A stretch of 64,000 nt of DNA, taken from the IMG/VR virus record IMGVR_UViG_2698536484_000026; one strand, given 5' to 3'. Positions 8,704 to 37,576 of the stretch are shown here, piece after piece. Below the pieces are notes generated by a model that made no database searches, was not told where the DNA came from, and saw nothing but the letters and a program-made list of their open reading frames with translations. Position 1 is the stretch's first letter. The number at the start of each line of letters is the position of its first letter. The translations under genes were made by a program, and so were the position numbers. This DNA comes from a virus. Its lineage: Duplodnaviria > Heunggongvirae > Uroviricota > Caudoviricetes.

Positions 8704-8796
8704 CGGCTGTTAGTGCATATGCATTGACCATCTCTGCGTAAGCAATTTATGTAATTAGAAAACAACTTGTTTTGACAAATAATAAAAGGAAAACAC

Positions 8797-9222
8797 ATGT
8801 TAGGTTTCTTCAAAAAGAAAACTCGTAAAGCTGTTATCGAAGTCAAAAAAATGGAGAACCGTGATGCGGTTGAGGCCACCGTGTGGGGCGCGTACATGAT
8901 CTCCTATGCCGACGGCACATGTGACGCAAAAGAAATTGCCATTCTTGAGAAGACAATTGCAGCTCTGCCTGCGTTTTCTCCGTTTGCTGGTGAAATTGCC
9001 CAAATGAGCGCCAATATCCGTGCTCGTTACGAAGCGTCCCCTCGTTCTGCTAATGCACAGGCTATTCGTGAGCTGTCTGATATTGCGGGTACTCCAGAGG
9101 CGGTCGATGTTCTGTGTCTGTGCCTTGATATTGCCGATCAGGACGGCATTGGTGAACAAGAAGAGCAGGCACTGAAAAAGATCGCCCAGGCGCTTCAGTT
9201 GTCACTGGATGCTTATCTCTAA
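8797..9222 (+). CDS. TerB-like domain protein (tentative)
   Basis: YADGTCDAKEIAILE...DIADQDGIGEQEEQALKKIA resembles TerB-fold pattern; preceded by AAAACAA-N-TTGTTT motif. Confidence 0.45.
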   Translation: MLGFFKKKTRKAVIEVKKMENRDAVEATVWGAYMISYADGTCDAKEIAILEKTIAALPAFSPFAGEIAQMSANIRARYEASPRSANAQAIRELSDIAGTPEAVDVLCLCLDIADQDGIGEQEEQALKKIAQALQLSLDAYL

Positions 9223-9381
9223 TGCTTGAGAGATTCCGGCTTGTGATCGTCATTGCTCTTCTGGTGATGGCGGTGTTGGTGGATTTTACGGGAAAGATGA
9301 TGTCTGTCATTTCTGATGGCGTCCTCATTGGTTTGGCGATCTACTTCGCTTATCCGTTAGTTCGTAAAGCAAAGTGCTAAT
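9223..9381 (+). CDS. Small hydrophobic protein (52 aa)
   Basis: Mostly hydrophobic; ATG abuts previous stop; followed by terminator hairpin at 9383-9403. Confidence 0.3.
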
Positions 9382-9519
9382 GACAAGGGCCAAATGGCCC
9401 TTGTGTTTCGTTGACCGAAATAGAGAGTTTGCACCTTTACGTTTAGCTTGCTCCCCTTTTATGCCACATCACAATAAAGCCAATAAGAAAACAACTTGTT
9501 TAAGCATTAGGAAAAACAC

Positions 9520-10086
9520 ATGTGCAAGAAATGCAAAGCGATAGCTGATGAACAAAACGCCTTATTCGAAGAAATGGATGCTAATGAACTGGTCAAAATG
9601 TTAGCCATTCTTCGAGGAATAGAAGACGTTTCCATATTTGAGAGAGTGGTTACAGCACTTAATTATGAGTCCGCCTTTGAAGAGCCAACTCAGATTGTAG
9701 CTTTAGCACATCATTTCGGTGTTCATTATCTTGCTGAAAAAGAGAGAGCTGATAAGTTGCAAGCGACTTTGGATATGGTGAGCGAGACTCAAGGATCTCA
9801 TGACGGTAATAAAAGTGAGACGATTATTGCCAGCAAAGATCGTGAAATTGCCGGGCTTAAATCCTCTCTAACGATGTTGATGTCTGCAATTAACCTTATG
9901 TCTTCTAAAGCAGGTTATAAAATGCCATCACTAAACAGCGACGATCCGATGGCCGTTCGCCAGCTTTTAGGTGCAATGGCCGACCAGCTCGACGACACAA
10001 AGAGTCGCCTTGAAGACATGATGCGGGAGCTCACGCATCGCCATGACTTGAATAAGCAGCCGCACAAAACGCAATACGCACTCTAA
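9520..10086 (+). CDS. Hypothetical protein
   Basis: ORF preceded by conserved AAGAAAACAACTTGTTT motif and RBS; terminator hairpin 10104-10119 after it. Confidence 0.45.
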   Translation: MCKKCKAIADEQNALFEEMDANELVKMLAILRGIEDVSIFERVVTALNYESAFEEPTQIVALAHHFGVHYLAEKERADKLQATLDMVSETQGSHDGNKSETIIASKDREIAGLKSSLTMLMSAINLMSSKAGYKMPSLNSDDPMAVRQLLGAMADQLDDTKSRLEDMMRELTHRHDLNKQPHKTQYAL

Positions 10087-10227
10087 TACTGCACCAGTCG
10101 ACAGGGGGCGAAAGCCCCCATTTTTACGCCTTAAATCTGCTGTAACGCCTATGAATGCAGCTTTTATGCCTTTTCAAGTTTGCGATAATTACACCAATCA
10201 GAAAACAAATTATTTAATGGTGTAATT

Positions 10228-11913
10228 ATGAATACAGCCCTTTCTATCATCGACGATGCCAGCTCAAACACGGCTATCGACTATCGTCAGGAAATGAATG
10301 TCATCCACGAAATCGTGGCCGAGTGCGAGAAAGAGATCGCCTTCATGTATCAGGTACACGACTTCGTTTATGGCGACGAACGCCACAACATGATTAATCG
10401 CCTGCTGAGACTAAACCATCGACCAGATGAAGATCGCTCGCGTTTAAATCGAGGTTGGTTGGATAAAGTCGATCTGGAATGGGTGAAACAGAATATTTGG
10501 GCCGAGTACTGGAGGAAGGTCACGGACATGACTAACGTTTTGCTGATCATGCCAGCTTCCCGTCGAGATGAGTGGCGCGAGCAGTTTATAGAGGGCAAAC
10601 AGGAAGTCATCAAAACTGACAGAACCGGCTACCAGATGAAGGTTAAAGAGTTCGTTGGTGTACCGGAGTTCAAAGCAGAAACGGTCATACCCACGATGCT
10701 TAATTTGCTGAATGACAGGCACAAATATCTCTCTGAGCGCGTGTATGGCTTGTTTAAGGCGCTGAGTCCTGCGCACAAGACAAATAAGACAAACGGTTTC
10801 AGCGAGCGTCTGATAATCGCTGACTGCATTTCTGATTTCTGGCGGGACAGCGTTAGCGTGAACTATCGCAAAGAGGACTACATCGACGATCTGCGTGTCT
10901 TGCTTCATTTCTTCGCGCACAAAGAATTTATTACCATCAACCGCACTGCTGAGGTGCTATCAGCTGCGTATAGGGCAAACGACTGCCAGACCGGTGACTG
11001 GATGAACGTCGATGGAAATCTGATGCGCGTGAAGATGTTCAAGAACGGCAACGTTCACTTTGAAATACATCCTGACGTGGCCTGGAAGTTGAATGAGGTG
11101 CTGGCTTACAGTATGCCTGCTGCAATCCCCGCGCCATGCCGAACTGCGCCAAAAACACGGGCACCAAAGCAGTTCGGTTTAATCCAGAAGACGATCTCCG
11201 TGCCGGTTCGCACTGCGCTTCGTGACGGGCGATTGAGCAAAGACAAAGGCGTATGGTACTTCTCTGATTCAGCTCTCCAGAAGTCGCAGGTGGAAGAGCT
11301 TGAGCGCACACTTAGCTTCATTGGCGGCGTGCAGGAGAAAAAGCACTGGCAGTTCCCGTATGAGATCGGCCATACGCTAAATACGATTGTGGCTACCGGA
11401 TTAATACCGGATACAAAATCACACCAGTTCTACCCTACCCCACGCTTGATTGCTGAGTACGTTGCCAGAGCCACTGAATTGAAGCCTGGTGAGAAGCTGC
11501 TGGAGCCTCAAGCCGGACGTGGGGAGCTTCTGGCCTATATTAACGCCGATCTGGAAGATGTTACCTGCATAGAAATCGCACCTCTCTTCGCTGATATCCT
11601 GCGTGGAAAAGGGTATACGAACACGATTTGCTGCGACTTCATAAAGTGGTCTGAGGACAACGCAGGTTATCAGTTCGACAAAATCGTTATGAACCCGCCG
11701 TACTCGCTTGGTCGTCATAGAGAGCACACGATGGCTGCGCTGGGGCATCTGAAAGTCGGCGGGCGTCTTGTAGCAGTATTGCCGGGCACTGCGCCAATAC
11801 TGGACTGGATGACGATGGATAATTACGTTTATGCCAGAGGGAAGTCGTTTACCAACGAGTTTGAAGATACCGGGATCACAGTCAGCGTATACGTTTTCAA
11901 ACGCGTTAAATGA
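10228..11913 (+). CDS. Putative N6-adenine methyltransferase fused to a large N-terminal domain of unknown function
   Basis: C-terminal FYPTP, EPQAGRGELL and NPPYS motifs; N-terminal 380 aa unassigned. Confidence 0.6.
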   Translation: MNTALSIIDDASSNTAIDYRQEMNVIHEIVAECEKEIAFMYQVHDFVYGDERHNMINRLLRLNHRPDEDRSRLNRGWLDKVDLEWVKQNIWAEYWRKVTDMTNVLLIMPASRRDEWREQFIEGKQEVIKTDRTGYQMKVKEFVGVPEFKAETVIPTMLNLLNDRHKYLSERVYGLFKALSPAHKTNKTNGFSERLIIADCISDFWRDSVSVNYRKEDYIDDLRVLLHFFAHKEFITINRTAEVLSAAYRANDCQTGDWMNVDGNLMRVKMFKNGNVHFEIHPDVAWKLNEVLAYSMPAAIPAPCRTAPKTRAPKQFGLIQKTISVPVRTALRDGRLSKDKGVWYFSDSALQKSQVEELERTLSFIGGVQEKKHWQFPYEIGHTLNTIVATGLIPDTKSHQFYPTPRLIAEYVARATELKPGEKLLEPQAGRGELLAYINADLEDVTCIEIAPLFADILRGKGYTNTICCDFIKWSEDNAGYQFDKIVMNPPYSLGRHREHTMAALGHLKVGGRLVAVLPGTAPILDWMTMDNYVYARGKSFTNEFEDTGITVSVYVFKRVK

Positions 11914-11974
11914 TAGGTAAATACTTACTTAATTTGTGTAAGAATGTAGTAACTAAACGAGAAGAGAAAAACAC

Positions 11975-12679
11975 ATGAGCAACCTCCAGTTAGAGCATTT
12001 TAACGTCACAGGCCGTTCTGATTTTTCTTTCAAGTTTACATTGAAAGGTTATGCAGAGGATGCGGTAGGCCAGATCATTATTGATAAAGGCATCGTTAAG
12101 TTTGAGGGGGATTTTGATGAATCCGCGAAAACATTCATAGACTTCGTTGCCAAACGTTGGAGCGAGCAATGGAAAGACCTGGAAAAGCGCGCTAATGAGT
12201 TTGATCGGTTCATGGATGCAATGGATACAGCAAAAGAGGCTCTTGCTGCCGGGACTCCGTTAGATCTGGAGTCACTTTTCAACGGCGAAGTGGCCTCTGC
12301 GATGTTCGCCACCATGTTCGCGGGTGAGTTCGTCCGCAGCGGTGCCAAAAACTACCTTGAGCTGGATTACAACGTCCCTGCAATTGGCGATTTCGTCGTT
12401 ACCATCCAACGCAAAGAAGGTAAGACGCCAGGTGAACGCGTCGCAGAGCTTGAGGCTGTTGTGGATCAGCGTAACGGAGAGTGTGACCGTTTGATCAACG
12501 AGCTTCATGCACTTCGGGAAGAAAGAATATGCGCGGGTAGCAATACACGTAATGCTGCGGATATCTACTTCCAGTTAGTTGAGGAATGCCAGATTCCACC
12601 AGGTGGCTCTCTTGTCGATTACGTCAGACATTTAATGGCGGAAGTTAACTCCAGCCATAAAGATGGTGAGGTGCGCTGA
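11975..12679 (+). CDS. Hypothetical protein
   Basis: ORF with RBS; stop overlaps next start. Confidence 0.45.
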   Translation: MSNLQLEHFNVTGRSDFSFKFTLKGYAEDAVGQIIIDKGIVKFEGDFDESAKTFIDFVAKRWSEQWKDLEKRANEFDRFMDAMDTAKEALAAGTPLDLESLFNGEVASAMFATMFAGEFVRSGAKNYLELDYNVPAIGDFVVTIQRKEGKTPGERVAELEAVVDQRNGECDRLINELHALREERICAGSNTRNAADIYFQLVEECQIPPGGSLVDYVRHLMAEVNSSHKDGEVR

Positions 12680-13059
12680 TGTTTGGCATTGACGCACAGC
12701 GTATAGCCGCTTTTGCAAAAAGCCCTCTTGATAATCCCTTGTCTCGTAGTGAGCAAATGGAGCTGGCAAGGCTTTTTCTTCATATTCAAAAACAGGCAGA
12801 CGTTTTCAATAACATGCCTGATCAACCTATTCTGGATGGTCACATCCAGATGGTCATTAACAGTCATGAGAAAGGCTGGGCTGCAATCGTCCCCTGCACA
12901 ATTACATACAAGTTGGCGAAAGAGGTTCAAGAGTTTCGAAAAGCCAGTGTCGAATCGGAGTCTACCAAAGCCGCAATAAACACTCTTATTCGCATGGGGT
13001 TCACATGGGACGGTGGAGCTTACTGGCAAGCACCTCAACCCATTTTATCCGGCAATTAG
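12679..13059 (+). CDS. Hypothetical protein
   Basis: Coupled to preceding ORF; terminator-like hairpin 13090-13110 follows. Confidence 0.4.
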   Translation: MFGIDAQRIAAFAKSPLDNPLSRSEQMELARLFLHIQKQADVFNNMPDQPILDGHIQMVINSHEKGWAAIVPCTITYKLAKEVQEFRKASVESESTKAAINTLIRMGFTWDGGAYWQAPQPILSGN

Positions 13060-13178
13060 GCGCTACAAATCCTTCTGCATGAATAAATAAAGGCCATAAC
13101 TTATGGCCTTAAATAAATTGTTTTCTGCCTTTTCTTATTTGTGAAAATAACCACAACTAGAAAACAACGGAGTTAAGA

Positions 13179-13820
13179 ATGTCTAGTATTTCCGAAGCAC
13201 ATATGTTCGCCGCTGGCGCTCATGGTGGCGTTGGTCAGAAAAGAAAATATACAGGTGAAGATTATATAAATCATCCGGTTGCTGTCCGAGAGATCGTTGC
13301 ATTGCATGACGGAACCGTGGAGATGCAGATCGCGGCGCTTCTGCATGATGTGGTCGAAGACACAAATGTAACCATAGAGATGGTTCGTGATCACTTCGGT
13401 GAGCGCGTAGCTGAAATGGTTCTGGCTCTGACCAACATTGCAAGGCCAGAAGACGGCAATCGAATACAGCGTTTCATCATCAATGTCCGGGAGCTGGAGC
13501 AAAATCTCAACATGCAGACGCGCATGATCAAGCTGGCTGACCTGCTGGACAATACCTCTTCTATCGTGAGTCGCGATCCTGAGTTTTCAGCTATCTACCT
13601 TGCAGAGAAAGAACTGATGCTGGACGTACTCTTTAACGGCAAAGAGATTGGTGCCAATGCTGATGTTGTCGAGTACATGGAGAGGGTAGGTATAGAACAC
13701 CCGTTGCTATTAAGCGCAATGGCGAAAGTGACAGAAGGTATTGCGCTTCTGAAACCGGTACACATCAAACGTTATGAAAAACACAAATCGCTGATCTGGA
13801 GCGCGTGGGAGGCTGCATGA
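13179..13820 (+). CDS. RelA/SpoT-type HD-domain hydrolase (putative (p)ppGpp hydrolase)
   Basis: AHGGVGQKRKYTGEDYINHPVAV...AALLHDVVEDT matches RelA/SpoT HD hydrolase domain. Confidence 0.65.
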   Translation: MSSISEAHMFAAGAHGGVGQKRKYTGEDYINHPVAVREIVALHDGTVEMQIAALLHDVVEDTNVTIEMVRDHFGERVAEMVLALTNIARPEDGNRIQRFIINVRELEQNLNMQTRMIKLADLLDNTSSIVSRDPEFSAIYLAEKELMLDVLFNGKEIGANADVVEYMERVGIEHPLLLSAMAKVTEGIALLKPVHIKRYEKHKSLIWSAWEAA

Positions 13821-14359
13821 AGGTCGAAAAAATAGATGTTCTTTCCTTTGTGCTGACGGATCTGGAACGCCTCGATCCGGTTCGAGTGATGATTGAAAAC
13901 TACGAACCTGGTAAGGGAAGAATCACCATCACCTGCTACGGAAAAGCGTGGACTGCGGCTTGGTTTGCTATGGGCGGTGATGATGTGCAGACGTTCATCA
14001 AGCGAGTTAGCAACGACTATCTAATCGACAATTTCGACCCTCAACTGCTAAGCACGGTCGACGATGACAACGATGCAAATCTGCTTTTCGTGAAGTCAGA
14101 AATCATAAAGTTACGAAGAGAGAGAGAAATCGATGCTGTACAGGCTCGCGAAATGTGGGTCGAGGCGGAAAACGCAGATGATGTCAAAGAAAGCTGCTGT
14201 TGTCTCGGCATCGGTAACAAACTGCTGAATCTATTTGGTGATGATCCGTGGTATGCCGACTGGCCAACGATACCAAACCCGAAATACCAGTATCTGGAAC
14301 GCATTGTGAACGCGGTACGTGAAGGGCTGAAAGAGTTAGACAAGTTAGAGGCATCGTAA
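13817..14359 (+). CDS. Hypothetical protein
   Basis: ATG overlaps previous stop; part of coupled gene string. Confidence 0.4.
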   Translation: MKVEKIDVLSFVLTDLERLDPVRVMIENYEPGKGRITITCYGKAWTAAWFAMGGDDVQTFIKRVSNDYLIDNFDPQLLSTVDDDNDANLLFVKSEIIKLRREREIDAVQAREMWVEAENADDVKESCCCLGIGNKLLNLFGDDPWYADWPTIPNPKYQYLERIVNAVREGLKELDKLEAS

Positions 14360-14814
14360 TGAGAGAGAAAATCAAGAACCCGGTCGTCGTATTGTATAAA
14401 CGGGAAACCAGCGATTCTTATGCGGTATCCATCACTGATGGAAGCCAGAACATGCACGATGGTCTGCTAATGGCCTCCGTATCTCCTGATGATTCGGACT
14501 ACCCTTTCGCCACTTTCGCTATGGTTGGTTACTACATGGCTGCCGAAATTGAGAAGTTGCGGGCGCAGAGAGACGCATTAGCGGCGGAGAATGCAGCCCT
14601 GAAAGAATCTGAGCGAGCATTCGATGCGATGTGTGCCGAGGAACACGGAGATAATTGGGTTAGCGAATTAACGGAGACTCCAGCAACCGATGCTTTTCTG
14701 GCTGAAGTACGTGCGCAGGGCGTGGAGATGTTTGCTGAGTGCGCATACACACTTGAACATCATGATCACGCAGTAGCTTTTGCCGCTGAGCTTCGTACAG
14801 GAGCTAAACAGTGA
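14359..14814 (+). CDS. Hypothetical protein
   Basis: Coupled ORF. Confidence 0.4.
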   Translation: MREKIKNPVVVLYKRETSDSYAVSITDGSQNMHDGLLMASVSPDDSDYPFATFAMVGYYMAAEIEKLRAQRDALAAENAALKESERAFDAMCAEEHGDNWVSELTETPATDAFLAEVRAQGVEMFAECAYTLEHHDHAVAFAAELRTGAKQ

Positions 14815-15377
14815 ATGAGATTTACTACCTGACGTTACGTGAACGTTATTCACCAAAACCAGCGCCTAAATGCTCTGTTTGTGGCGAGGAAATGTCAATA
14901 CAGCGCATATCTGGAGCACATGTTGTTTATGCCTGTTCCGGTGAGGGTGATGACGGATATTTTAAGATAGGGCGTACTTTTGCAGACGAACATTATGAAA
15001 AATCACGCGTAACAGTAGTTGATGATAGTGATCCCGATGTGATTGCACTGCTGGACGAACTGGATAAAAGACAGCAACACATCCGACGTCTTGAGCAGGA
15101 GAACGTAGAGATGGCCCTAACGCTTGAGAAACTGCGTGTTGAGCTGGAGACCGTTAAACAGCGGGAAAAGGATCTGTTTATGGAAAATGTTCGACTTAAG
15201 TCAGGTATAGCAGGTCTGATACACCTCGGTATTCGATATGCGGATGTCGAAGTCATGAAAATAGCTGGAGATGCCCAGCTTTCTACTCCCTGTACTGACA
15301 GCATCATAAACAGTATTGCATCAGGCGTTTTCACCAAAGAGGGTCAGCATGATGAGAACAGTAGAAGTTCGCGCTGA
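14811..15377 (+). CDS. Hypothetical protein with CxxC...C zinc-ribbon-like N-terminus
   Basis: CSVCGEEMS...YACSG; coupled ORF. Confidence 0.4.
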   Translation: MNEIYYLTLRERYSPKPAPKCSVCGEEMSIQRISGAHVVYACSGEGDDGYFKIGRTFADEHYEKSRVTVVDDSDPDVIALLDELDKRQQHIRRLEQENVEMALTLEKLRVELETVKQREKDLFMENVRLKSGIAGLIHLGIRYADVEVMKIAGDAQLSTPCTDSIINSIASGVFTKEGQHDENSRSSR

Positions 15378-15537
15378 AGATGTAACCCCAGGTGATGTGG
15401 TCATAACATCTAAAGGCAAACGATGTGCGGTTAAATCTTTCTGGATGAACGGTGAAAAAGTGACTCTGTTCGGTACGGATGGTTCCGAAACTGATTATGA
15501 CTACGACGAATTGCTTGTTGTTGAGAGAGCTACCTAA
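15349..15537 (+). CDS. Hypothetical small protein
   Basis: Short ORF overlapping neighbours in operon. Confidence 0.3.
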   Translation: MMRTVEVRAEDVTPGDVVITSKGKRCAVKSFWMNGEKVTLFGTDGSETDYDYDELLVVERAT

Positions 15538-16073
15538 TGACCACCTTTACCAAAGAACAGTTAATCTCCCATGCACGCGAAAGCGTTAGTTATCTGGAAG
15601 ACTTGAAAGGACGTGTTAGTAAAGAAGGAGCGGACTGCAAAGTTGTTCATGAGATGGTTGAACGAGATCTAAAACTGGCTCGAATTGCACTGACCTCACT
15701 GGAGGCAGAGCCAGTGGCGTGGCTGGTAACACTCACAAAAAACGATCAGGAATCAGTCTCTATTATTTACCGTGACTGTGCAGAGAAAGATACATGGGTT
15801 CGGATACATGAGTCACTCGGTTCTGTCGCACATGTTGCCCCGCTTTACATGGCGCAGCCAGAACCGTCGAAGGAGGAGAAAGGACGTTCAGTCATCCAGG
15901 GTAAAGCCGATAATTCACCATTGCCGCGCTACCAGGTTATCGAATTAACAATGCTGGTTAAACAATTGGTCAGCCAACTGAAAAAAGCAAAACCTGATTG
16001 CAAATTACCGGATAGGGCAATGGATTATCTTTTGCGGAACGGACTGCTAAGTGTGGAGGATGCCTTACGATGA
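15537..16073 (+). CDS. Hypothetical protein
   Basis: Coupled ORF. Confidence 0.4.
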   Translation: MTTFTKEQLISHARESVSYLEDLKGRVSKEGADCKVVHEMVERDLKLARIALTSLEAEPVAWLVTLTKNDQESVSIIYRDCAEKDTWVRIHESLGSVAHVAPLYMAQPEPSKEEKGRSVIQGKADNSPLPRYQVIELTMLVKQLVSQLKKAKPDCKLPDRAMDYLLRNGLLSVEDALR

Positions 16074-16657
16074 TTGAAATGACAAAAGAAGAACTAACAC
16101 AGGCAACAAAGGATTACGGAAAAAAGCACATCGCACATCGTATGGCGAATGTGTTACTGGCCTTGTCTGAACAAAAGCCATCTGCGTTTGTAATGAAAGA
16201 TGATTTGGCCGATCCGGCAATTGTTTCGACTCCGGCATATTTAGATATTGAGGATGCGGAACAAAAAACGATTGGGGATATTGTCGCGCTTTATGCCGAT
16301 CCCTTTCCTGTCATCGGCGACACTACTGCTCTTGTGGACGATATTTTAAACATTCTCGCGCTTCTTGAGGCTGGCGATTGGTCAGAACATTGCACTAAAA
16401 CGGAGTTAGGCGGTCGGCTTGAAAGAGAGATTACACAACTTATTGGTGATGCCCAAAATGATTTGTCACCTGAGCATCTCCCCTGCGATGTAGTCCTTGT
16501 GCCAGGGATGAGGATACACGAAGGCGTCAGAACGAAAACATTATTAACCGCATTACAGAGAAGAGCCGAACTAAGCTCGCGGATAAAGTTGATGCCATCC
16601 AAAATATTTGATGTCGTCAAATTTACGCCATCGCAACATACTGAGAGAGATAAATGA
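16070..16657 (+). CDS. Hypothetical protein
   Basis: Coupled ORF. Confidence 0.4.
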   Translation: MIEMTKEELTQATKDYGKKHIAHRMANVLLALSEQKPSAFVMKDDLADPAIVSTPAYLDIEDAEQKTIGDIVALYADPFPVIGDTTALVDDILNILALLEAGDWSEHCTKTELGGRLEREITQLIGDAQNDLSPEHLPCDVVLVPGMRIHEGVRTKTLLTALQRRAELSSRIKLMPSKIFDVVKFTPSQHTERDK

Positions 16658-17286
16658 GCACGGTAGCGAAAGATCTCACAGAAGATATTCTCAATGAAAT
16701 TATTGCTGGTGCAAATACCTCGCTTGAGCAACTTCTTGCGTTAGCACTGAGAGCCGAACGTCGAGACAGAAATCGTTTTTATGAACGATTACCAGGGAAA
16801 CGACCAGATAGATCAGATGAAGAAGGTTGCGATATAGACTACATGGAGCCTTCAGAGATTTATCAACTTGGTAAAGATGACGGCTGGAACGCTTATCACG
16901 ATGCTGTGATGAAGTTGGATGAAAAAGTTAAACCTCTTTCTCGACCGGTAGATCACGGTTTCCGCGATAACTGCGAATGCTCTAGTTGCCAGACCACGGC
17001 CCGTATTTGTTCCGAATTGACAGATAAGTCCAGCCTAATCTACGAAGTTAATGTAGGCGGTAATACATGGGTCGAATGCACAAGAGCTGCATACGTAAGA
17101 GCAAAAGACAAGGGTGAATTAACCAGAGTTGTTGCCCATCACCCAAATAATGAGCTTAAAGATCACCAGATTAGAGAACTGGTGAATGAGTTGCGGGATA
17201 TTGCGGTTCAGTACCACGGAACGCAGCAATTGCGGGAGAAAATTGCCAGAGCAGTGAACAACTCAATTAGATCAGAAAGTATGTAG
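16654..17286 (+). CDS. Hypothetical protein (Cys-containing)
   Basis: Last gene of left + strand operon; hairpin 17302-17321 downstream. Confidence 0.4.
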   Translation: MSTVAKDLTEDILNEIIAGANTSLEQLLALALRAERRDRNRFYERLPGKRPDRSDEEGCDIDYMEPSEIYQLGKDDGWNAYHDAVMKLDEKVKPLSRPVDHGFRDNCECSSCQTTARICSELTDKSSLIYEVNVGGNTWVECTRAAYVRAKDKGELTRVVAHHPNNELKDHQIRELVNELRDIAVQYHGTQQLREKIARAVNNSIRSESM

Positions 17287-17720
17287 TCAATACAATAAAA
17301 TGGCCCCATTTGGATGGGGCCGGTAACAACTAGCATTATGGGCGCTGGTTGACGTACTCAATGATCGCTTCGATGATTGCGAACATAGGCGGCACGATTT
17401 TGAAAAGTAAGTTAAGCACTATAGGCCTCACTTAGTTTTATCGCACCTAGCTGCAAATACCTTTGAGCTTGCCTTTGCAGTTGCAATATCTGTAGTCGCC
17501 AGATACTTACGGCACGATTTCGAGTTAAGGTAAGGTTTTAGAGTCACCAAAAACCTGGACTTAAATCTTCTTTGAGAACAACGATGTTTGGTAAATGGTC
17601 ATTATTACCTAGCATGACGGCTCAACGTTTCTTGATGAATCCAGTACATTCGGTTAATCTTAGCTCAGTCGCCAGATACTTATGGCTCAGGAACAGAGGC
17701 GCAAACTCTGTTTCCTTTTA

Positions 17721-17753
17721 AAAAGCCCAGCCTAGTCAACTGGGCTTTTTTAA
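17721..17753. terminator. Bidirectional rho-independent terminator
   Basis: agcccag...ctgggct stem flanked by A-run upstream and TTTTTTA downstream. Confidence 0.5.
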
Positions 17754-18046
17754 TGTCCGTTTTTAACCAAATGTACCCACAATACCGCAACATCAGTGTC
17801 TTGCGAATTAAGATAGGATTTATAGAGACTATGTGCAAGTGCATAACTTTGTGGATAACTCGTAAAGGAAAAAGTGGTTTCCGCGGACATTAGTTCAGAC
17901 AAGGAGTCTGGGAAAGTCAATGGGAAGTAAAAATTTGTTAAAAATAACGTTTGTTGGAATTGTATATATTTATGCCTTTCAATAGTTAGCATCTTATTAA
18001 CATCTTTTTTAAGAGATAGAGTTCAAAAATATATAGCTTCAACATA

Positions 18047-18066
18047 TACTGTATGCATATACAGCA
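18047..18066 (+). promoter_or_regulatory. LexA (SOS) box
   Basis: TACTGTATGCATATACAGCA fits CTGT-N8-ACAG, 17 bp upstream of UmuD'-like start. Confidence 0.6.
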
Positions 18067-18082
18067 TTAAGAGGCGAGTATT

Positions 18083-18472
18083 ATGGGCTTCCCTTCTCCT
18101 GCGGCGGATTATGCTGAGAGCCGTATTTCTCTTGATCAGCAGATAATTAGACATCCTTCAGCGACCTACTTCATGAGGGCGGCTGATAGTCATCATCGTG
18201 AGGGAATATTGCAGGGTGCATTGCTGGTGGTCGATTCCTCACTGACTCCTGTTGATGGATCTCTTCTTGTATGTGCTCTGGATGGGGAATATCGCGTAAA
18301 AAGATACCGGAAGTATCCACGTCAGCATCTGGAGGATTTAAGAACTGGTAAGAAGGAAGCATTGCCAAAGGATGATGATGGATGCACGGGCAGCAATGCC
18401 GTGTTTGGTGTGATCACTCACATTATCAACGACGCAAGAAGTGGCGAGTTTGATGATTGTCCTGTGATGTAG
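18083..18472 (+). CDS. umuD: UmuD'-like S24 peptidase-fold protein, N-terminally truncated (P1 HumD-like); no umuC partner
   Basis: GFPSPAADY...HPSATYF...DS...VK aligns to UmuD from about residue 25 onward; in-frame stop 15 nt upstream fixes the start. Confidence 0.7.
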   Translation: MGFPSPAADYAESRISLDQQIIRHPSATYFMRAADSHHREGILQGALLVVDSSLTPVDGSLLVCALDGEYRVKRYRKYPRQHLEDLRTGKKEALPKDDDGCTGSNAVFGVITHIINDARSGEFDDCPVM

Positions 18473-18483
18473 GAGAACTGTTT

Positions 18484-18510
18484 AGGTGGTGCATTGCACC
18501 ACCTTTTTAT
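18484..18510 (+). terminator. Rho-independent terminator
   Basis: Perfect 9-bp stem aggtggtgc/gcaccacct followed by TTTTAT. Confidence 0.55.
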
Positions 18511-19610
18511 CACACTGCGCGGAATGCGATTTCGCCAGGTATTACTTCACCTTGCCAATACATTTGGGCAGCAACGCGATCTGCGAGGTCACGATAAATA
18601 GCCGTAAATTCGCTATCTGGACGACTAATAACGGTTGGTGTTCCGTTATCCAGATCTTCACGAAGAGAGATATGAAGTGGCATTTGGCCTAACAACTGCG
18701 TGTTGTATTTCTCGGCCAGTTTCTGTGCGCCACCGGTGCCAAAAATTGGCTCGTGATGACCGCAGTTACTGCAAATATGCACACTCATGTTTTCGACGAT
18801 ACCTAGTACCGGCACTTCGACTTTTTCGAACATCACAATGCCTTTCTTCGCATCGATCAGCGCGATGTCTTGCGGCGTAGTTACCACAACCGCACCAGTT
18901 ACAGGAATGTTCTGCGCCAGCGTCAATTGAATATCACCAGTGCCCGGCGGCATATCGAGAACGAGATAGTCCAGATCAGGCCACAGTGTTTCCTGCAACA
19001 TCTGCATCAACGCCTTGCTGGCCATCGGTCCACGCCACACCATTGCATTGTCGTCGGTGACCAGATAACCAATAGAGTTGGTTGCCAGGCCATGAGACAT
19101 GATAGGTGCCATGTGAGTACCGTCCGGTGAGGTTGGACGTTGGTTTTCCGCGCCCAGCATGGTTGGAATTGATGGACCATAGATATCGGCATCCAAAATA
19201 CCAACTTTCGCACCTTCAGCAGCCAAAGCCAGTGCCAAGTTTACTGCTGTGGACGATTTGCCTACACCGCCCTTGCCTGAGCTTACGGCGATAATATTCT
19301 TAACACCATTAATGCCTGGTTGGTTTTTGACGCGCTTAAGCGTGGCAATGTTGTACGACAGCTTCCAGTCAATAGCCTTTGCGCCAGTGATACGGAGCAG
19401 ATCACCACTACATTGCTCTTTCAGGTCTTCAAAAGGCTTATTCCACACGAAAGGCATGATTAGTTCGACATGCAGTGTGTCATCCATCAACGCAACATGG
19501 TGTAACGCTTTAAGCGTAGTCAGGTTGTGTTTCAGGGTTGGGTGCTGAAAATTAGCCAGCGTACCGGCTACCATTGCTCTCAGGGCATCCGGCGATTTGG
19601 ACTCGCTCAT
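18510..19610 (-). CDS. apbC: Iron-sulfur cluster carrier ATPase ApbC/Mrp
   Basis: Near full-length match to enterobacterial Mrp: AVSSGKGGVGKSSTAVNLALALA, MPPGTGD, C-terminal CSNCGH. Confidence 0.9.
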   Translation of the reverse strand: MSESKSPDALRAMVAGTLANFQHPTLKHNLTTLKALHHVALMDDTLHVELIMPFVWNKPFEDLKEQCSGDLLRITGAKAIDWKLSYNIATLKRVKNQPGINGVKNIIAVSSGKGGVGKSSTAVNLALALAAEGAKVGILDADIYGPSIPTMLGAENQRPTSPDGTHMAPIMSHGLATNSIGYLVTDDNAMVWRGPMASKALMQMLQETLWPDLDYLVLDMPPGTGDIQLTLAQNIPVTGAVVVTTPQDIALIDAKKGIVMFEKVEVPVLGIVENMSVHICSNCGHHEPIFGTGGAQKLAEKYNTQLLGQMPLHISLREDLDNGTPTVISRPDSEFTAIYRDLADRVAAQMYWQGEVIPGEIAFRAV

Positions 19611-19767
19611 CCCGTCTCCTTTATTTTAATTTGCGCAATTGTCGCCTTGTAGTGTACTCCAGCTGCGACATTTAATCATTTATGAGAAATGCTGTTATCA
19701 CATGGCAGACATAAGGCCATTTTGTTACTATCAAGCCCCTTTTCACTACAAAGAAGTAATGCCTACT

Positions 19768-21850: not shown

Positions 21851-21962
21851 ATAGACACAATCCCTCCTGATTTACACAAGCCCTAAAACAATTTGTTTTC
21901 TACCTTTTGTTGATTGAGATAATAAGCCGCATAAGAAAACAAATTGTTTCGGAGTGGTTGAA

Positions 21963-23623: not shown

Positions 23624-24689
23624 GTGTAATTAGCTTAATCAATCAGTTGATAATGGCGGTCACAATTTGATTCTTTTCTATAAGAATCCGTTGATCGCCA
23701 CTACTCTTCTTCCATACCTGCAATCACACCTTTAAATATCAATAGGTTAGCGTTGTTTATACCAATAAGAAAACAACTAAATAACAGATCAACGAAACGT
23801 CAACGCTTTCACCCGATTTGGTCTAAAAAATTGACGTTTTCACACATCACTGCTTATACCCGTAACTCTACGCAGCAGACAGCGCCACAGAGTCCAATTT
23901 TCACCACAGACGACTCAACACACTACCAACAAAAACACACGCTCAAAATCGCTCCCGCTGCGTTACACAACCATATAAACAACATATTTTCAGGTATAAC
24001 AAAACAACTAAATAACACATATGCCATTCCCCAAAACAACCAACCTCTTTATGGCAGGCTACCGAAAAGACCCACCTCTTCTCCCCAGGCTACTGGACAA
24101 CCAACCTAACTTTCACAGGCAATCCGAAAACATTCATACGCGCGATACCCACGACACGCCATTCCCCAAACAGCGAAGAAACACCAGAATCACTGAAACC
24201 CCAACGAAGCCTGTAACCGCAAGGATTCTCTCAATCCCAAAAGACTCGAAGCATAACAATCACGGGAAACGCCATTACCCAATACACGAATAACTACAAA
24301 AGCCTTTCACACACTCCAGACAAACAACTCAAACACAATAACGAAAGGAATCGCCCACCTGCCATTACTCCATACACGGAGAAGAACAATCACCAAAACG
24401 ACGAGAACACCCCATAGAAGAACCACCGCAAAACGAACGAAACCACATACACCGACAGAGAAAACAACACACCCAATTCACCAACAGAAATAGTCGCCGT
24501 ATAGAACATTCTGGAAGGAGTGAGCATTAACGCCTATAGAGAGGTTGAGACAGATAAAACACAACATGTATAGCGAAGAAGCCAGGTATGTATAAGTGGG
24601 GAGGGAAGGAGGGGTGTCGCCTCCTTTTTCGTATTTATTCAACTCCTGATTTTATCCCCCCGTAACACCCCTACGGTCAGCCTTCGGTC

Positions 24690-24835: not shown

Positions 24836-25185
24836 ATAGCGAGAGGGAGAGTTGCGGCTACCCACCTGTAATGTGCGGGAAGAAGAGAGGCGCTCACGTA
24901 GGCGGACTTGCTTACCGCTGGATTCCCTCTGAATGCCCAGCTACAGCGTAATTGTGCCAGACAGCCAACGGGTCACAATCGATTTCAGTAGGTTTTCGGG
25001 GAGAGGATTATTCTGCCCACCAGCCACCTTCGGCCACTAAATCAGAATAATGTAAAAAGTATACTCGGTACTGAACCTGAAAACTCACTGCCAAAACCAT
25101 ATTCACCGGAATAAAATCCTTTTTCGCCTGTGCGTTATTGCGATAATAACACCATCAAGAAAACATGTTGTTTAAGGATTGCTTT

Positions 25186-25515: not shown

Positions 25516-25668
25516 CCCCAACCAAAGCCAGCAATGCTGGCTTAATTTCTCTATAGCCGCAGGGAAGAACCTGCATATCGCTCATGCACCTGATCAATAT
25601 GCTTTGTAGCCGTTTTCTTACTGGTATTATTTACGCCATTGAGAAAACAAGTTGTTTACGGAGTTGTA

Positions 25669-26502: not shown

Positions 26503-26577
26503 TCCTCTTTAAATGGCGCGTAAACCGCGCCATTTTATTAAGCCCGATAACAATTTGTTTTCTGCCTTATCTGATTT

Positions 26578-26994
26578 GTGAAAATGATTTCACTGAAGCA
26601 ACTTAATAAGGAAACCATCATGGGACTTGATATCTATATCGAGACACAGCCTAAAAACGATCTGAATAACGAGGCATCCAGAAAGCAGGTTGCTTACTTC
26701 CGTAAGTTCAATGCGCTCGTTGGGTGGATGGAGCGCAACGTAGGTGAAGTCGAAAATTGTGAGCTTTTAGAATTAACGATGAATGACATTTGTTTTCTGA
26801 AGGCTCATTTGATGCACATAAACGAAAGTAATTGCGAAGAGTACTTGCCTACCCGGGAAGGTTTTTTCTTCGGCAGTCAGGAGTACGATGAAGGTTACTG
26901 GCATGATGTGGGGCAGTTGAAAGAGCTTGTGGAAGATCTGATTAAGAACCACGACTTTCACAATAACAGACTGACCTTCTGCGCCTGGTGGTAA
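26578..26994 (+). CDS. Hypothetical protein
   Basis: Preceded by conserved AACAATTTGTTTTCTGCC...TGTGAAAAT element. Confidence 0.4.
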   Translation: MKMISLKQLNKETIMGLDIYIETQPKNDLNNEASRKQVAYFRKFNALVGWMERNVGEVENCELLELTMNDICFLKAHLMHINESNCEEYLPTREGFFFGSQEYDEGYWHDVGQLKELVEDLIKNHDFHNNRLTFCAWW

Positions 26995-27344
26995 ATATGG
27001 GCGATTTCAAGAAACGCCTGAAGGAAAGAGCCGAGATGGTCAGAAAGCAAAACGCCTCTTCTGTCATCAGATACGCAAGGCAGTTTAGTCGCAACAACAA
27101 ATCAGTTGAGGAAAAGATCCTTAGCGTAATCGTGCGATAATTATTAAGGCCATCAGCATTGGTGGCCTTAAATGACCATCTTGTTTCCCGCAGGCTAAAA
27201 ACACCAACCTCTTACCTCCAGGCAACCGACAAACCCACCTGTTCCCGTCCGGCTACCGCAACTTTCCACTTTGACGCCTTATTCGTACAACGATAATTAA
27301 CACCAACAAGAAAACAATTTGTTATTTACGATAAGGAATTAATC

Positions 27345-27827
27345 ATGAATTTTATCGCTACTGTAAACGCACCCGCACATGGCAATATCGCTGTAACGTT
27401 CTCTGACATTGAAAAACGAGTACTTGGTGCATGGCGCGACAATGAGACGGTAGAACTGTCAGCACAAGAAAAATGCATTATTGCACGCGACATCATTGGC
27501 AATCGTCGTTACTCGCGGGTATTTGAGAAAGCGTATGTGGTAAATTCTGGATTCGGAACGTTCGTCTTTCCGGTGCGCTCCGGGCGATTCTGCCAGTCCA
27601 AGCTGATTGAGTTCGCTACGCAGATTTCTGTCTGGATTAAAACTCAATCGTCGTTCAAATTTTCCGACGATGAAGCAGTATCGCAGGGGATGCGGATCGC
27701 CAACAATGCAATTAAATGCAAAAACATTACGTATACCGCTGGCGTTGATACATGGAAACTGTTTTGCGCTAACTTTATGCTGAATGTATACGCAAGCAAC
27801 CGCATCCACATCCTTGATGGCGTGTAA
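27345..27827 (+). CDS. Hypothetical protein
   Basis: Preceded by CAAGAAAACAATTTGTT motif; hairpin 27830-27858 follows. Confidence 0.4.
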   Translation: MNFIATVNAPAHGNIAVTFSDIEKRVLGAWRDNETVELSAQEKCIIARDIIGNRRYSRVFEKAYVVNSGFGTFVFPVRSGRFCQSKLIEFATQISVWIKTQSSFKFSDDEAVSQGMRIANNAIKCKNITYTAGVDTWKLFCANFMLNVYASNRIHILDGV

Positions 27828-27869
27828 CTGAGAAGAGGGCCAGAAACGGCCCTTTCTCTATAGCCACCA

Positions 27870-28040
27870 GCTGCCGCAGGGAAATTTTCAGAAGCGGCGA
27901 GGAACGTATTCATGAGCCGACGGGGAACGGCCAGGATTTTTTCGGGAAACGGCTGCATTTGCCTTTGTGTAGAAAAAAACATCGGGAAGCTGGTGGAATC
28001 CAACCAGCGGTTGTCGGACAGGTGAGCGGGGAAAATTATG
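27870..28040. repeat. Iteron-like direct repeat array B (GGGAAACGGC-type units)
   Basis: Six degenerate copies (cagggaaatttt, gaggaacg, cggggaacggccagg, cgggaaacggctgcat, cgggaagctgg, cggggaaaatt). Confidence 0.4.
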
Positions 28041-28434
28041 ATGACTTTCGTCACCTGAGACATCCAGATTTCTTTCGTAGCATAATCACATACGTGATTA
28101 AGTGGTGTGATTATGTGAAAAATCACGCGCACATAATACGCGAGCGGATACGGAACAAAACAAAATGCCGATCCGCGCCGACAAATAAACGCGGATCATA
28201 AAGCAAGACTAAAAGCCAATGATTAACTATGCGCTATAACGCGTTTTAAGCGCGTTAATGTGTTAAGTAATGGGTATGTACTGGCAAGGATATAAAAGCG
28301 CGTCTATGGCGTTATTTTGGCGCTTATTTTTATGTTGTTGGAGTGAGTTAAAGACAATAAAAAACGCGCCATCAATGGCGCGTTATTGTGGAAGTATTGG
28401 AAACGAAAAAAGCGCCCATAGTGGGCGCTCGATT

Positions 28435-29882: not shown

Positions 29883-30407
29883 TTAAAATGGAAGGATTCG
29901 TTCAACCCAATCGAAGAAAACAAGTATTTTTCTGCCGTCTTCTAACTTAAGAGTGACCTGGCAAGCATCAACGCCTCTTGACACCCCTTCAATTTCACGA
30001 CCGTCTGCCATGTAGACCCTTATAGATTGGTCGTTTTGATAAGCCTTGCGACATATCGCAAAAAAGTCACGGCGTGATGGCTGATTGTCAACATAGTCTG
30101 GATGTATTGTTAGCCTACCTTTGAACTCGCGAGCAATGCCATCGATTACACCTGATTCAATTGTGCTAATGCGCTCAAGTGGGAGTCTTATACGATTTTC
30201 TTTATCATATGGAAGCGGGCATAAATCTAGCTTATTGCGGGAAGGCATTGTCCCCTGAACGTACATGCAAAACACCTGACCGTCTTCAAGCGTGACTCTT
30301 ACAGGAATGTTGTTCTTCCGCCAGAACATAAGTATGTTTTCAGCATGTTCGTAGTCTCGCGGCCAGACTTCAGCCGGTATGCCGTAGGTGATGTCCGATG
30401 TTCTCAT
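29883..30407 (-). CDS. Hypothetical protein (last gene of three-gene AT-rich operon)
   Basis: Start overlaps stop of upstream gene by 4 nt. Confidence 0.45.
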   Translation of the reverse strand: MRTSDITYGIPAEVWPRDYEHAENILMFWRKNNIPVRVTLEDGQVFCMYVQGTMPSRNKLDLCPLPYDKENRIRLPLERISTIESGVIDGIAREFKGRLTIHPDYVDNQPSRRDFFAICRKAYQNDQSIRVYMADGREIEGVSRGVDACQVTLKLEDGRKILVFFDWVERILPF

Positions 30408-32284: not shown

Positions 32285-32563
32285 TTACGGCAACCTGCTC
32301 AGTATTTCCTCTAAATCTTTTTTTGTCATATTGGAGTTTTCATAGATGCGCATGATTTTCTCACGCGTCTTAGCGGAAACCCCAACGGCAGATGTGACTT
32401 TGTCAAATTCAGCCATAGTCATCGTCTCCAGAATGGCATTGATAACTTCAGCCTTAGACATCTTGATTTTTTTCTCTTTGAGTTTTATTTGGAATTTTCC
32501 AAGTTTTTCATTGGCCTTATCAGACAATGCCACTTGGCAATAAGTTGTTTTCTTTTCGCTCAT
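32285..32563 (-). CDS. Hypothetical small protein
   Basis: Coupled to helicase gene stop. Confidence 0.4.
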   Translation of the reverse strand: MSEKKTTYCQVALSDKANEKLGKFQIKLKEKKIKMSKAEVINAILETMTMAEFDKVTSAVGVSAKTREKIMRIYENSNMTKKDLEEILSRLP

Positions 32564-36218: not shown

Positions 36219-37105
36219 CGGACATCATCATCAAACGCTACCGCCCTGAAGAGTTTCCGCGTCATCTGGACTTTCTGGAGCGAATGACTGTCACAAAGGG
36301 AACTGTAGAGGACTGGCACGCTCTTAAGTCGCTTCACTACAAAACAGACGGCAAACCTTTCGCGCCAACATACTATCGCTGCGAACTGGATGACCGTCTG
36401 GTGGGCGTCGTGGTTATGGCTTACCCGAAACTACTGTTGGCACCTCGCCACCGCATGTTTCCTAAGTTGAAACCAACCACTAATACCACCGTGGCTAACC
36501 AGTACTGGGGTCGGTACGTGAATAACAACTTTGCGGTGATCAGTCGCTCAGTTGTGGATACTCAGTATCGTGGCGTAGGCGTCTCTTATCGAATGATTAA
36601 CCTGGTTAGCAGGATGCATGACCGGCCAATCATTGAGATCCAGTCCTCGATGAGCAAATACAATCCCTTCGCCATGAAAGCAGGGTTTAAGTTCATCCGC
36701 CCTGAGCGACCGAAGAGCTATGAAAGTGCACTGCGTGTGTTCCAGCGCCATTTCCGCTCCGACCCGGGTGATAACGAGGCGATCGTCAAAGAGTTGTTCG
36801 CTATGAGCGAGTCTCGTCGTCGCCGTGCGCTGCGCGATTTGGTGGCGGACTACCATAAGAACAGTTCCCTGGCAAAAGCTGGGCGGAATCGTGGCACGAC
36901 GATTCAGGACATTGCCGACAGTCTGGTGGACGAGGCCAGCATTGTGAAGCTGCTCAAGGACATTCACAACCTGAGCTTTACGTCTCCGTTGTATGGTGTG
37001 TACCGAAACCCTGACTTTGGCCGTCGACTGCCTGACACGCTGCCACTGCTGGCATTCGACAAACAACCTTTGGATAAACCGTTAGAAATTGCTTTACCGG
37101 CATAA
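36215..37105 (+). CDS. Hypothetical protein, possible GNAT-like acetyltransferase fold
   Basis: QYRGVGVSYRMI weakly resembles GNAT motif A; coupled to ATPase gene. Confidence 0.4.
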   Translation: MTDIIIKRYRPEEFPRHLDFLERMTVTKGTVEDWHALKSLHYKTDGKPFAPTYYRCELDDRLVGVVVMAYPKLLLAPRHRMFPKLKPTTNTTVANQYWGRYVNNNFAVISRSVVDTQYRGVGVSYRMINLVSRMHDRPIIEIQSSMSKYNPFAMKAGFKFIRPERPKSYESALRVFQRHFRSDPGDNEAIVKELFAMSESRRRRALRDLVADYHKNSSLAKAGRNRGTTIQDIADSLVDEASIVKLLKDIHNLSFTSPLYGVYRNPDFGRRLPDTLPLLAFDKQPLDKPLEIALPA

Positions 37106-37114
37106 GGATTTGCC

Positions 37115-37381
37115 ATGACGTTAACCGATAAACAAAAGGACATCATCAAAACGCTCAATCTCGGTTATGAGCGAGGTCATCTACTTGACCTGGACGAATT
37201 GCTTGAAGTTTTGCCGTACAAGACAACCAAGCAAAGTATCCAGTTCTCAATTCGCGCTCTGATAAAAAAGGGGCTGGTGGAGAAAGGGCATACGCGCCAA
37301 CGCAGTGACAATCGCTATCACCGCCGAACTCTTGGGTTAACCACTTTAGGTCGAGCCAAAGCGAAGTTACTGGTGATGTAA
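37115..37381 (+). CDS. Small basic protein, possible winged-helix DNA-binding
   Basis: 88 aa, basic; follows GNAT-like gene. Confidence 0.35.
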   Translation: MTLTDKQKDIIKTLNLGYERGHLLDLDELLEVLPYKTTKQSIQFSIRALIKKGLVEKGHTRQRSDNRYHRRTLGLTTLGRAKAKLLVM

Positions 37382-37412
37382 TCGGTCTGGGAGCTTATTT
37401 AAAGACCTGCAT

Positions 37413-37461
37413 CTGTATATATAAATAATAAGTAACTTATTAAATATATACGGAAGCAGGC
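37413..37461. repeat. Conserved element, copy 2 (CTGTATATATAAATAA...TATACGGAAGCAGGCT)
   Basis: About 50-bp match to 6302-6351; both followed by CCAGACCT within 30 bp. Confidence 0.5.
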
Positions 37462-37576
37462 TTCGTAAGACATGCCAGACCTAATTAAACACCCCAGAAA
37501 ACAAGTTGGTTAGCAGATGCAGTAAACAAGTTGTTTTAGAGCGCATGGACGCGCTCTGTGTGTTTTAGAGGGATCT

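Follow-up and report, generated by a model that had tools for sequence, protein, structure and literature searches.

The 64,000-nucleotide stretch of viral DNA analysed here (IMG/VR record IMGVR_UViG_2698536484_000026; hereafter the window) is an Escherichia coli SSU5-like phage-plasmid in which the starts of about ten genes are closely preceded by a 17-base near-palindrome that we call motif A (AGAAAACAA-N-TTGTTT, with a 13-bp palindrome core; in double-stranded form AGAAAACAANTTGTTT). Motif A is a genuine, conserved and genome-wide cis-regulatory site of SSU5-like phage-plasmids, and we read it, with moderate confidence, as a DNA operator within a conserved, modular promoter cassette of these elements. 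SSU5-like phage-plasmids are common in clinical Enterobacteriaceae, and the searchable literature yielded no description of motif A and none of gene control in these elements. Together with a second dispersed palindrome (motif B), motif A offers a concrete regulon map, in which the promoters grouped together include those of the replication helicase, nrdB, parA and the late operon, as well as a short list of candidate regulators.

Between 8 and 28 kb, the window is 96-97% identical to the E. coli phage-plasmids CMS-2020a and Cyrano (pLF82), and the same region is, in parts, ~80-87% identical to Salmonella phage SSU5 and to Klebsiella phage-plasmids. The comparison set consisted of the complete genomes of Cyrano, SSU5 (Salmonella) and pJN2-26 (Klebsiella). 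Window position 8000 corresponds to Cyrano 79789, and terS of the window (37577) is Cyrano gene 1.

Enrichment and position of motif A

Exact matches to AAAACAANTTGTTT number 8 in the window against 0.00 expected from shuffled sequence, and when one mismatch is allowed there are 20 matches against 0.28 expected, a count that no shuffle reached; because the core is palindromic, several of these matches are one site read on both strands. Copies of AGAAAACA start at positions 8757, 9486, 10200, 21934, 25158, 25642, 27309 and 37496, with a second site upstream of terS at 37523, and half-sites (AGAAAACAAC) lie at 13159 and 23768. A preliminary description of this DNA had reported a motif recurring before gene starts at these places, and both the motif and its coordinates hold, every site and half-site being present within 1-3 nucleotides (nt) of the position given. 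Its count was too low, since the inverted copies at 13110, 21885 and 26547 had been overlooked. The sites and the elements around them, including the Shine-Dalgarno (SD) sequences, are as follows.

8757..8773, plus strand: motif A AGAAAACAACTTGTTTT, 24 nt before ATG 8797 of a TerB/TciA-like gene
9470..9502, plus strand: -10-like CACAAT (9470-9475), 10 nt, motif A AGAAAACAACTTGTTTA (9486-9502), ATG 9520
10184..10216, plus strand: TGcGATAAT -10 (10184-10189), 10 nt, motif A AGAAAACAAATTATTTA (10200-10216), ATG 10228 of a DUF4942/methylase-like gene
13110..13126, minus strand: flipped upstream copy AGAAAACAATTTATTTA (minus-strand reading), directly after a GC hairpin and before tctGCCTTTT
13143..13168, plus strand: TGtGAAAAT -10 (13143-13148), 10 nt, left half-site AGAAAACAAC (13159), ATG 13179 of an HD-domain gene; the left half alone is present and runs directly into the SD GGAG
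21885..21901, minus strand: flipped upstream copy AGAAAACAAATTGTTTT (minus-strand reading), its centre 51 bp from that of the downstream site
21918..21950, plus strand: TGaGATAAT -10 (21918-21923), 10 nt, motif A AGAAAACAAATTGTTTC (21934-21950), ATG 21963 of a DUF5983-like gene
23768..23777, plus strand: left half-site AGAAAACAAC after a degenerate cassette (GCGTTGTTTATACCAATA), bordering a 1.5-kb non-coding repeat region; the 25-nt unit of this site has a second copy at 23996
25142..25174, plus strand: TGcGATAAT -10 (25142-25147), 10 nt, motif A AGAAAACATGTTGTTTA (25158-25174), likely ATG 25186
25625..25658, plus strand: TGgTATTAT -10 (25625-25630), 11 nt, motif A AGAAAACAAGTTGTTTA (25642-25658), ATG 25669
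26547..26563, minus strand: flipped upstream copy AGAAAACAAATTGTTAT (minus-strand reading), after a terminator and followed by tctGCCTTaT...TGtGAAAAT, with a degenerate downstream site only
27292..27325, plus strand: GATAAT -10 (27292-27297), 11 nt, motif A AGAAAACAATTTGTTAT (27309-27325), ATG 27345
37496..37537, plus strand: two motif A sites 25 bp apart, AGAAAACAAGTTGGTT and TAAACAAGTTGTTTT, in the late-operon leader upstream of terS (37577)
37539..37566, plus strand: terminator-like GC hairpin GAGCGC-atggac-GCGCTC followed by TGTGTGTTTT, between the motif A pair and the terS SD

From the end of the motif to the ATG there are 24, 18, 12, 13, 12, 11 and 20 nt at the full sense sites, each of which precedes a gene supported by PHROG matches, 4 nt at the 13159 half-site, and 65 and 40 nt at the two terS sites, whereas an ATG of a called gene lies 5-45 nt downstream of only 6.4% of window positions. 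The positional link to gene starts proposed earlier is therefore borne out, together with an enrichment far above that in shuffled sequence.

Several gene starts needed revision in this context. The genes at 21963 and 27345 had been missed by a crude gene caller and are supported by PHROG matches, and the mechanical open reading frame (ORF) start at 25165 falls within motif A itself (AAAACATGTTG); because the PHROG alignment begins at residue 8, the true start is probably 25186. The mechanical ORF start at 26578 is likewise too far upstream, with a PHROG alignment from residue 15 that points to ~26620, and in the Cyrano annotation the start of CYRAN_110 has been placed too far upstream in the same manner. 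A site with two mismatches at 29917 lies on the opposite strand within the coding region of an FljA-like gene and was treated as a chance match.

Putative promoter cassette and inverted upstream copies

Aligning the sites brings out a cassette of constant order: a gCCTTTT box, 9 nt, a -10-like hexamer, 10-11 nt, AGAAAACAA-N-TTGTTT(A), the SD and the ATG. At seven of the nine window sites the hexamer is fixed 10-11 nt upstream of the motif, while anything from 4 to 65 nt separates the motif from the ATG, and a profile of 37 sense sites from the three genomes gives the same fixed -10. The hexamer takes the forms GATAAT, GAAAAT or TATTAT, is preceded by the TGn of an extended -10 in five of seven cases, and is separated from the palindrome by a spacer that usually reads aACACCAACA. 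With the hexamer set at -12 to -7, the palindrome would be centred at about +13 and the gCCTTTT box would lie at about -27. No canonical -35 is present, and since a standard sigma-70 scan, which needs a -35, finds no promoter at the motif sites, the assignment rests on an extended -10 read by eye. Canonical sigma-70 matches in the region 8500-28400 of the window are fewer than in shuffled sequence (14 against 28.9).

Three window cassettes have a second, inverted copy of the motif upstream (13110, 21885 and 26547), centred at about -38 and 51 bp from the first, which corresponds to about five helical turns. These flipped copies have the extended and better conserved half, AGAAAACAA, on the minus strand, always 16 nt from the -10 and pointing towards it, and in all seven promoter-linked flipped sites of the three genomes (3-4 independent cassettes) the AG-bearing half is kept on the opposite strand; cassettes lacking an upstream palindrome have no conserved CT at the corresponding place. 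Upstream copies accompany, among others, the downstream sites that are a half (13159) or degenerate (after 26547). As the flipped copies carry their AGAAAACAA half on the other strand, the recognised form would be duplex DNA and not sense RNA.

Terminator-like hairpins are also enriched between 8500 and 28400 (34 against 19.4 expected), and this region has the appearance of a run of small cassettes, each made up of terminator, promoter, leader and gene, with flipped motif A copies directly abutting several of the hairpins. The hairpin in the terS leader is conserved in SSU5 and pJN2-26, and the arrangement of the late-operon leader (37496-37576), in which it would be a terminator or attenuator separating the promoter from the late genes, is like that of lambda pR'-tR'.

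Conservation among SSU5-like elements

Cyrano has ~17 motif A sites, SSU5 ~20 and pJN2-26 ~16. The three genomes together hold 53 matches with at most one mismatch, a few of them to be expected by chance; ~37 are sense sites in leaders near the SD and ~16 are flipped, 7 of the latter being promoter-linked and the rest lying in other contexts or arising by chance. The motif also stands before parA, a DnaB-like helicase gene, cobT, nrdB and terS. At orthologous sites the flanks have diverged and motif A has not. It is likewise unaltered in a Nissabacter-type element with an FljA-like protein of only 57% identity, and in elements with no more than 48-64% identity at the par locus. Where IMG/VR loci have several copies, the contigs measure 90-112 kb. 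The earlier idea of one site shared by many genes fits this picture, the motif being enriched, strand-specific, tied to gene starts and conserved across diverged relatives.

A decayed SSU5-like fragment at 385-398 kb of the E. coli chromosome CP125919.1 still has two motif A cassettes. It also contains a degenerate FljA-like ORF with 48% identity, apparently scarred by frameshifts.

Operator reading and expression in the lysogen

We propose that an extended -10 (TGnGATAAT) without a canonical -35, a gCCTTTT box at about -27 and an operator centred at about +13, with the SD and start codon directly after it, would together form the promoter, and that in some cassettes a further operator, inverted and with its centre at about -38, would lie 51 bp from the one at +13. 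A single plasmid-encoded DNA-binding protein would bind the ~17-20 sites of each genome and keep the downstream genes jointly off while the element is a plasmid. The regulon would comprise small accessory genes, dnaB, nrdB, cobT and the terS late operon, and parA only in part. Recognition of duplex DNA at the promoter is suggested by the fixed distance to the -10, by the flipped copies with their AG extension and by the 51-bp pairing. Enrichment, architecture, conservation and background RNA levels are observed directly; from them we infer the position of the transcription start, binding as DNA, repression and the identity of the binder. The preliminary description had suggested an operator, an RNA hairpin or a processing site shared under one regulator. 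One site for one regulator fits the data, and the operator is the best supported of these options, given the fixed 10-11 nt to the -10-like hexamer as against the variable ATG distance and the AG extension retained in the flipped copy at about -38.

Published RNA sequencing of a Cyrano lysogen (PMC9928086, S1 table) places the motif A genes at background, with values of 5.7-25.5 fragments per kilobase per million (FPKM) against a median of 9.8 (CYRAN_1 7.1, 32 21.1, 47 7.8, 58 5.7, 70 12.9, 85 7.0, 87 7.1, 90 7.8, 101 7.5, 105 12.8, 106 12.2, 108 5.7, 110 6.7 and 111 25.5). The exception is parA, at 49.8 and up to ~1000, with its operon mates at 89 and 55. Other genes expressed in the lysogen in the same data are those of the CI-like repressor (96 FPKM), of CYRAN_117, a protein of 92 amino acids (aa) (114 FPKM), and of the ParG-like CYRAN_29 (89 FPKM), whereas the ParB-like genes (5.0 and 9.5) and the gene of an 88-aa protein (7.8) are not expressed (PMC9928086).

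Candidate binding proteins

The proteins considered as binders of motif A include the following.

Cyrano 29975-30334, outside the window: CYRAN_29, the gene after parA, annotated as a RelE/ParE putative toxin
32285..32563, minus strand: 92-aa protein (CYRAN_117 homologue), lysogen-expressed, with a weak ribbon-helix-helix-like pattern; secondary candidate
37115..37381, plus strand: 88-aa protein with sub-threshold winged-helix similarity, adjoining the terS control region upstream; secondary candidate
29883..30407, minus strand: FljA-like gene, Pfam Flag1_repress (PF03614) at 5e-81 over the full length; candidate RNA-level binder

The leading candidate is CYRAN_29, the 119-aa partner of a type Ib ParA, which may act as a ribbon-helix-helix co-regulator of the ParG/omega kind. 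Judged by its sequence, it looks like a ParG/omega-type centromere-binding partner instead of a RelE/ParE toxin: a basic and variable N-terminal tail is followed by IKSRTMSL-EDEYFELLEMM...FTRSDVIRAAI, which we read as a strand-helix-helix pattern, and Pfam RHH_1 matches two of its relatives below threshold (E = 0.005 and 0.11) in the expected register. Its operon (parA and partner) is the sole operon of a candidate DNA binder to be preceded by motif A, and this is so in every lineage, with the motif 35-45 nt before parA in Cyrano, SSU5, pJN2-26 and three further loci (L147-L149). Across the E. coli, Salmonella and Klebsiella elements, residues 25-119 are near-identical, against 52-79% identity for the other proteins. 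Even in relatives with 48% overall identity, no change is seen in the putative beta-strand IKSRTMS or the putative helix FTRSDVIRAAI, just as the motif itself does not change. The region upstream of parA is the densest window of AAACA/TGTTT in L147 and L149 (6 in 110 nt, top 0.2%); the Cyrano lineage has a single palindrome there, and three direct AAAACA repeats are found in the distant homologue L150. Should the partition protein prove to be the binder, a single protein would link plasmid maintenance to the silencing of phage genes.

For the 92-aa protein the AlphaFold2 (AF2) model is poor (mean predicted local distance difference test, pLDDT, 62), a PDB profile search was uninformative, and hhalign to CopG gave E = 0.033. 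Two proteins with ParB_N domains are weaker DNA-binding candidates. The FljA-like protein is modelled as two tandem Sm/Hfq-like domains without a helix-turn-helix (HTH) (pLDDT 84; predicted template modelling score, pTM, 0.82), a fold that would provide a structural basis for FljA action on mRNA. Among phage records it occurs in SSU5-like elements only (14 records) and is present in all of those examined, and 82 homologues are nearly all on contigs of 105-111 kb from Escherichia, Salmonella, Enterobacter, Citrobacter, Cronobacter and Klebsiella. A search for covariation between motif and regulator showed no discriminating variation, as the motif and the putative DNA-reading residues are the same in every fetched relative; the comparison reached 57% (FljA-like) or 48% (ParG-like) identity, and the two most distant loci (L150 and L151) are suggestive only.

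Two further possibilities were rejected. The CI-like repressor (CYRAN_45) is excluded because its own control region bears a different palindrome, GGTAAGTGCTTACC (motif B), and because SSU5, which lacks the gene, keeps motif A. Proteins encoded directly downstream of the motif sites were considered as autoregulators, and Pfam and PHROGs give no DNA-binding domain in them.

Alternative explanations

Several points weigh against the operator reading. The -10 was assigned by eye, and the sigma-70 scan requiring a -35 does not call these promoters; parA has motif A and is nonetheless expressed in the lysogen (50 FPKM to ~1000), so that repression there would be partial or a second -10 downstream of the motif would be used; the site is always beside the SD in the 5' leader, which would suit an RNA-level mechanism equally; and the sequence from the -10 to the palindrome (AACACCAACA) is conserved as well, so that the cassette may be constrained as a whole or copied as a unit. 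With regard to CYRAN_29, comparisons by hidden Markov model (HMM), PDB profile and hhalign (ParG, omega) gave no significant support for a ribbon-helix-helix, and the extreme conservation of the par module could stem from recent exchange rather than constraint.

The position of the motif in leaders also invites a reading at the RNA level, the main rival, which we consider possible though unlikely: the FljA-like protein would bind the motif in the 5' leader, block translation and so destabilise the mRNAs, in the way that FljA of Salmonella acts on fliC mRNA. A full-length member of the FljA family, nearly confined to SSU5-like elements, is encoded in the window; Klebsiella pneumoniae is classically non-flagellate, and the presence of the family on Klebsiella elements hints at a role apart from flagellin. 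Sense orientation and abutment to the SD characterise the leader sites (~37 of the 53 matches), and the 5' untranslated region (5'UTR) of Salmonella and Citrobacter fliC contains CAAGTTGT, an 8-mer of the motif core, 10 nt before the SD, although this is a single post-hoc match (p roughly 0.003-0.01) and in E. coli fliC the half-sites are spaced 3 nt further apart. FljA binds fliC mRNA and blocks its translation, according to work cited in PMC2652032, an action that would fit, and the FljA-like gene is expressed in the lysogen (18 in lysogeny broth (LB), log2 7-8 in most other conditions; PMC9928086). Taken furthest, and only as a speculative possibility built on the modelled fold, the FljA-like protein might be a master post-transcriptional silencer and not a flagellin moron, binding AGAAAACAA-N-UUGUUU in ~17-20 leaders, blocking translation and setting off the decay of mRNAs for replication, accessory and late-operon genes; maintenance of lysogeny would be partly at the RNA level, and Salmonella would have domesticated a copy as its chromosomal fljA, with the CAAGUUGU core retained in the fliC target. 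With the FljA-like protein as the binder, lysogeny would be controlled in a new way, and a classic phase-variation regulator would have its origin explained. Sense RNA, however, leaves unexplained the flipped copies with the AG extension on the other strand and a -10 distance that is fixed where the distance to SD and ATG is variable, and both features count against an RNA operator as the sole mechanism. The gene may instead be a moron whose role is to silence host flagellin. A structured RNA, in which the palindrome hairpin would serve as processing site, stabiliser or terminator, is very improbable and already largely refuted. The palindrome does lie within transcribed leaders, and the two sites in the terS leader can pair together (z = -1.76). 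Among eight folded leaders, however, the palindrome hairpin reaches -1.2 to -1.8 kcal/mol where it forms at all, the leaders are no more stable than their shuffles (z from -0.7 to +1.1), the palindrome taken alone has a z of about 0 at -1 to -2 kcal/mol, the natural variants TTATTT, TTGGTT, TTGTTA and ACATG break the pairing without compensation, and a gathering scan of the whole window against Rfam gave no match. On this weak folding, the uncompensated variants and the empty Rfam scan, the hairpin was rejected as the main function, and the processing-site option of the preliminary description is not supported either.

The cassette as a whole might instead be what is recognised, by a phage activator, a sigma-appropriator or an antiterminator-loading factor, so that its genes would form one lytic temporal class and the palindrome would not be a repressor site. 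We regard this as improbable. The absence of a canonical -35 is as in activator-dependent promoters, the conserved box at about -27 to -22 is where P1 late promoters have their -22 box, and the member genes are silent in the lysogen. The terS late-operon promoter belongs to the group and is followed by a terminator-like hairpin, as in lambda pR'-tR', and the motif B operon directly upstream encodes two ParB-like proteins, ATPases and the 88-aa winged-helix-like protein. On the other hand, binding at +5 to +20 is rare for activators, parA is expressed in the lysogen despite carrying the motif, the P1 -22 box (AAGTGACTT) is unrelated in sequence, and an inverted palindrome on both sides of the -10 is typical of repressors; P1 residues 1-50000 contain 0 copies of motif A.

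Comparison with known regulatory systems

As a DNA operator, motif A would belong with the dispersed operator regulons of P1, IncP and Inc18, and its sequence matches no known operator. The C1 operators of P1 are similar in that one operator occurs in many scattered copies, each over the promoter or start of a separate early operon and some of them paired, but P1 uses an asymmetric 17-mer of unrelated sequence, to which C1 binds; no C1 homologue was found here, no search having been aimed at one. The OB sites of KorB (IncP) and the omega heptads of pSM19035 likewise form sets of about a dozen short palindromic or repeated sites, one of them before the own par operon, and the 13-bp palindrome core of motif A adds to the likeness with OB. 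KorB and omega are partition proteins that double as global repressors, for which the putative ParG-like partner would be the candidate parallel here. Sequence is again unrelated, however, and the candidate is a small ParG-like partner of a type Ib ParA instead of a ParB/HTH protein; moreover, most motif A sites are single palindromes and not heptad arrays, and no lysogen expression is seen for this element's ParB_N proteins. To our knowledge, motif A is unlike the C1, OB and heptad consensus sequences, and no E. coli transcription factor is known to have the motif A consensus.

The FljA/fliC system shares with this element a homologous protein, a site in the 5' leader by the SD and the core CAAGTTGT, but FljA has one known target against ~17-20 on the element here, and the flipped copies outside leaders do not fit it. 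Lpa-dependent late promoters of P1 resemble the cassette in having a -10 without a -35 and a conserved box at about -25, and differ in that the box reads gCCTTTT against AAGTGACTT and that motif A is downstream of the -10 and not at -22; the combination of the 9-bp inverted repeat AAGTGACTT at -22 with TANNNT is absent from the cassette.

Motif B and the CI-like module

Motif B, (A)TAG-GTAAGTRCTTAC-CTA(T), is a second dispersed palindrome, perfect over up to 20-28 bp, with 7 occurrences in the window at no more than one mismatch against 1.4 expected and 12-18 per genome.

Window 5651, 7866, 11917, 26048, 34175 and 39466, and Cyrano 42607: motif B, with many further copies in SSU5 and pJN2-26

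Nearly all copies are intergenic and follow an A-rich tract, with a start codon 10-30 nt further on. Some are inside the late operon: one separates the terL stop from the portal start (39466), and in SSU5 others precede the tail fibre and holin genes. At the promoter of the ParB-like operon (34175) it occupies the slot of motif A (GCCTTTT-N14-TATTAT-N10-palindrome), and this sharing suggests that the slot acts as an exchangeable operator position.

The intergenic region between the CI-like and cro-like genes, which is the control region of the CI-like gene itself, contains motif B as well, and motif B is probably the operator of the CI-like repressor; a stable RNA hairpin is also possible. The SSU5 isolate (42525-42761) lacks the integrase/CI-like/cro-like module of Cyrano 41090-43038 and retains its motif B sites. 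This loss with motif B kept fits motif B as the CI-like operator, and the loss of the module fits SSU5 as a lytic derivative. The CI-like and integrase module is found on 865 plasmid records, including a 106.7-kb plasmid of Salmonella enterica and 96-101-kb plasmids of Yersinia pestis.

Other features of the window

A degenerate motif A cassette at 23750 leads into a stretch of 1.5 kb without ORFs (23633-25165), A/C-rich on the plus strand and containing several repeat families: ATAAGAAAACAACTAAATAACA twice, 231 bp apart; GCCATTMCCCAAA three to four times, 113-135 bp apart; and a 31-nt unit GGGAAAAGGCTG...GGAACGG three times. It may serve as an origin, iteron field or centromere, or as a region of non-coding RNA. 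Additionally, the window encodes two items of cargo that are unusual for a phage-plasmid, namely a lysogen-expressed P-loop ATPase of the Mrp/NUBPL type, annotated as MinD (18510-19610, minus strand), and a full-length methionyl-tRNA synthetase (19639-21801, plus strand).

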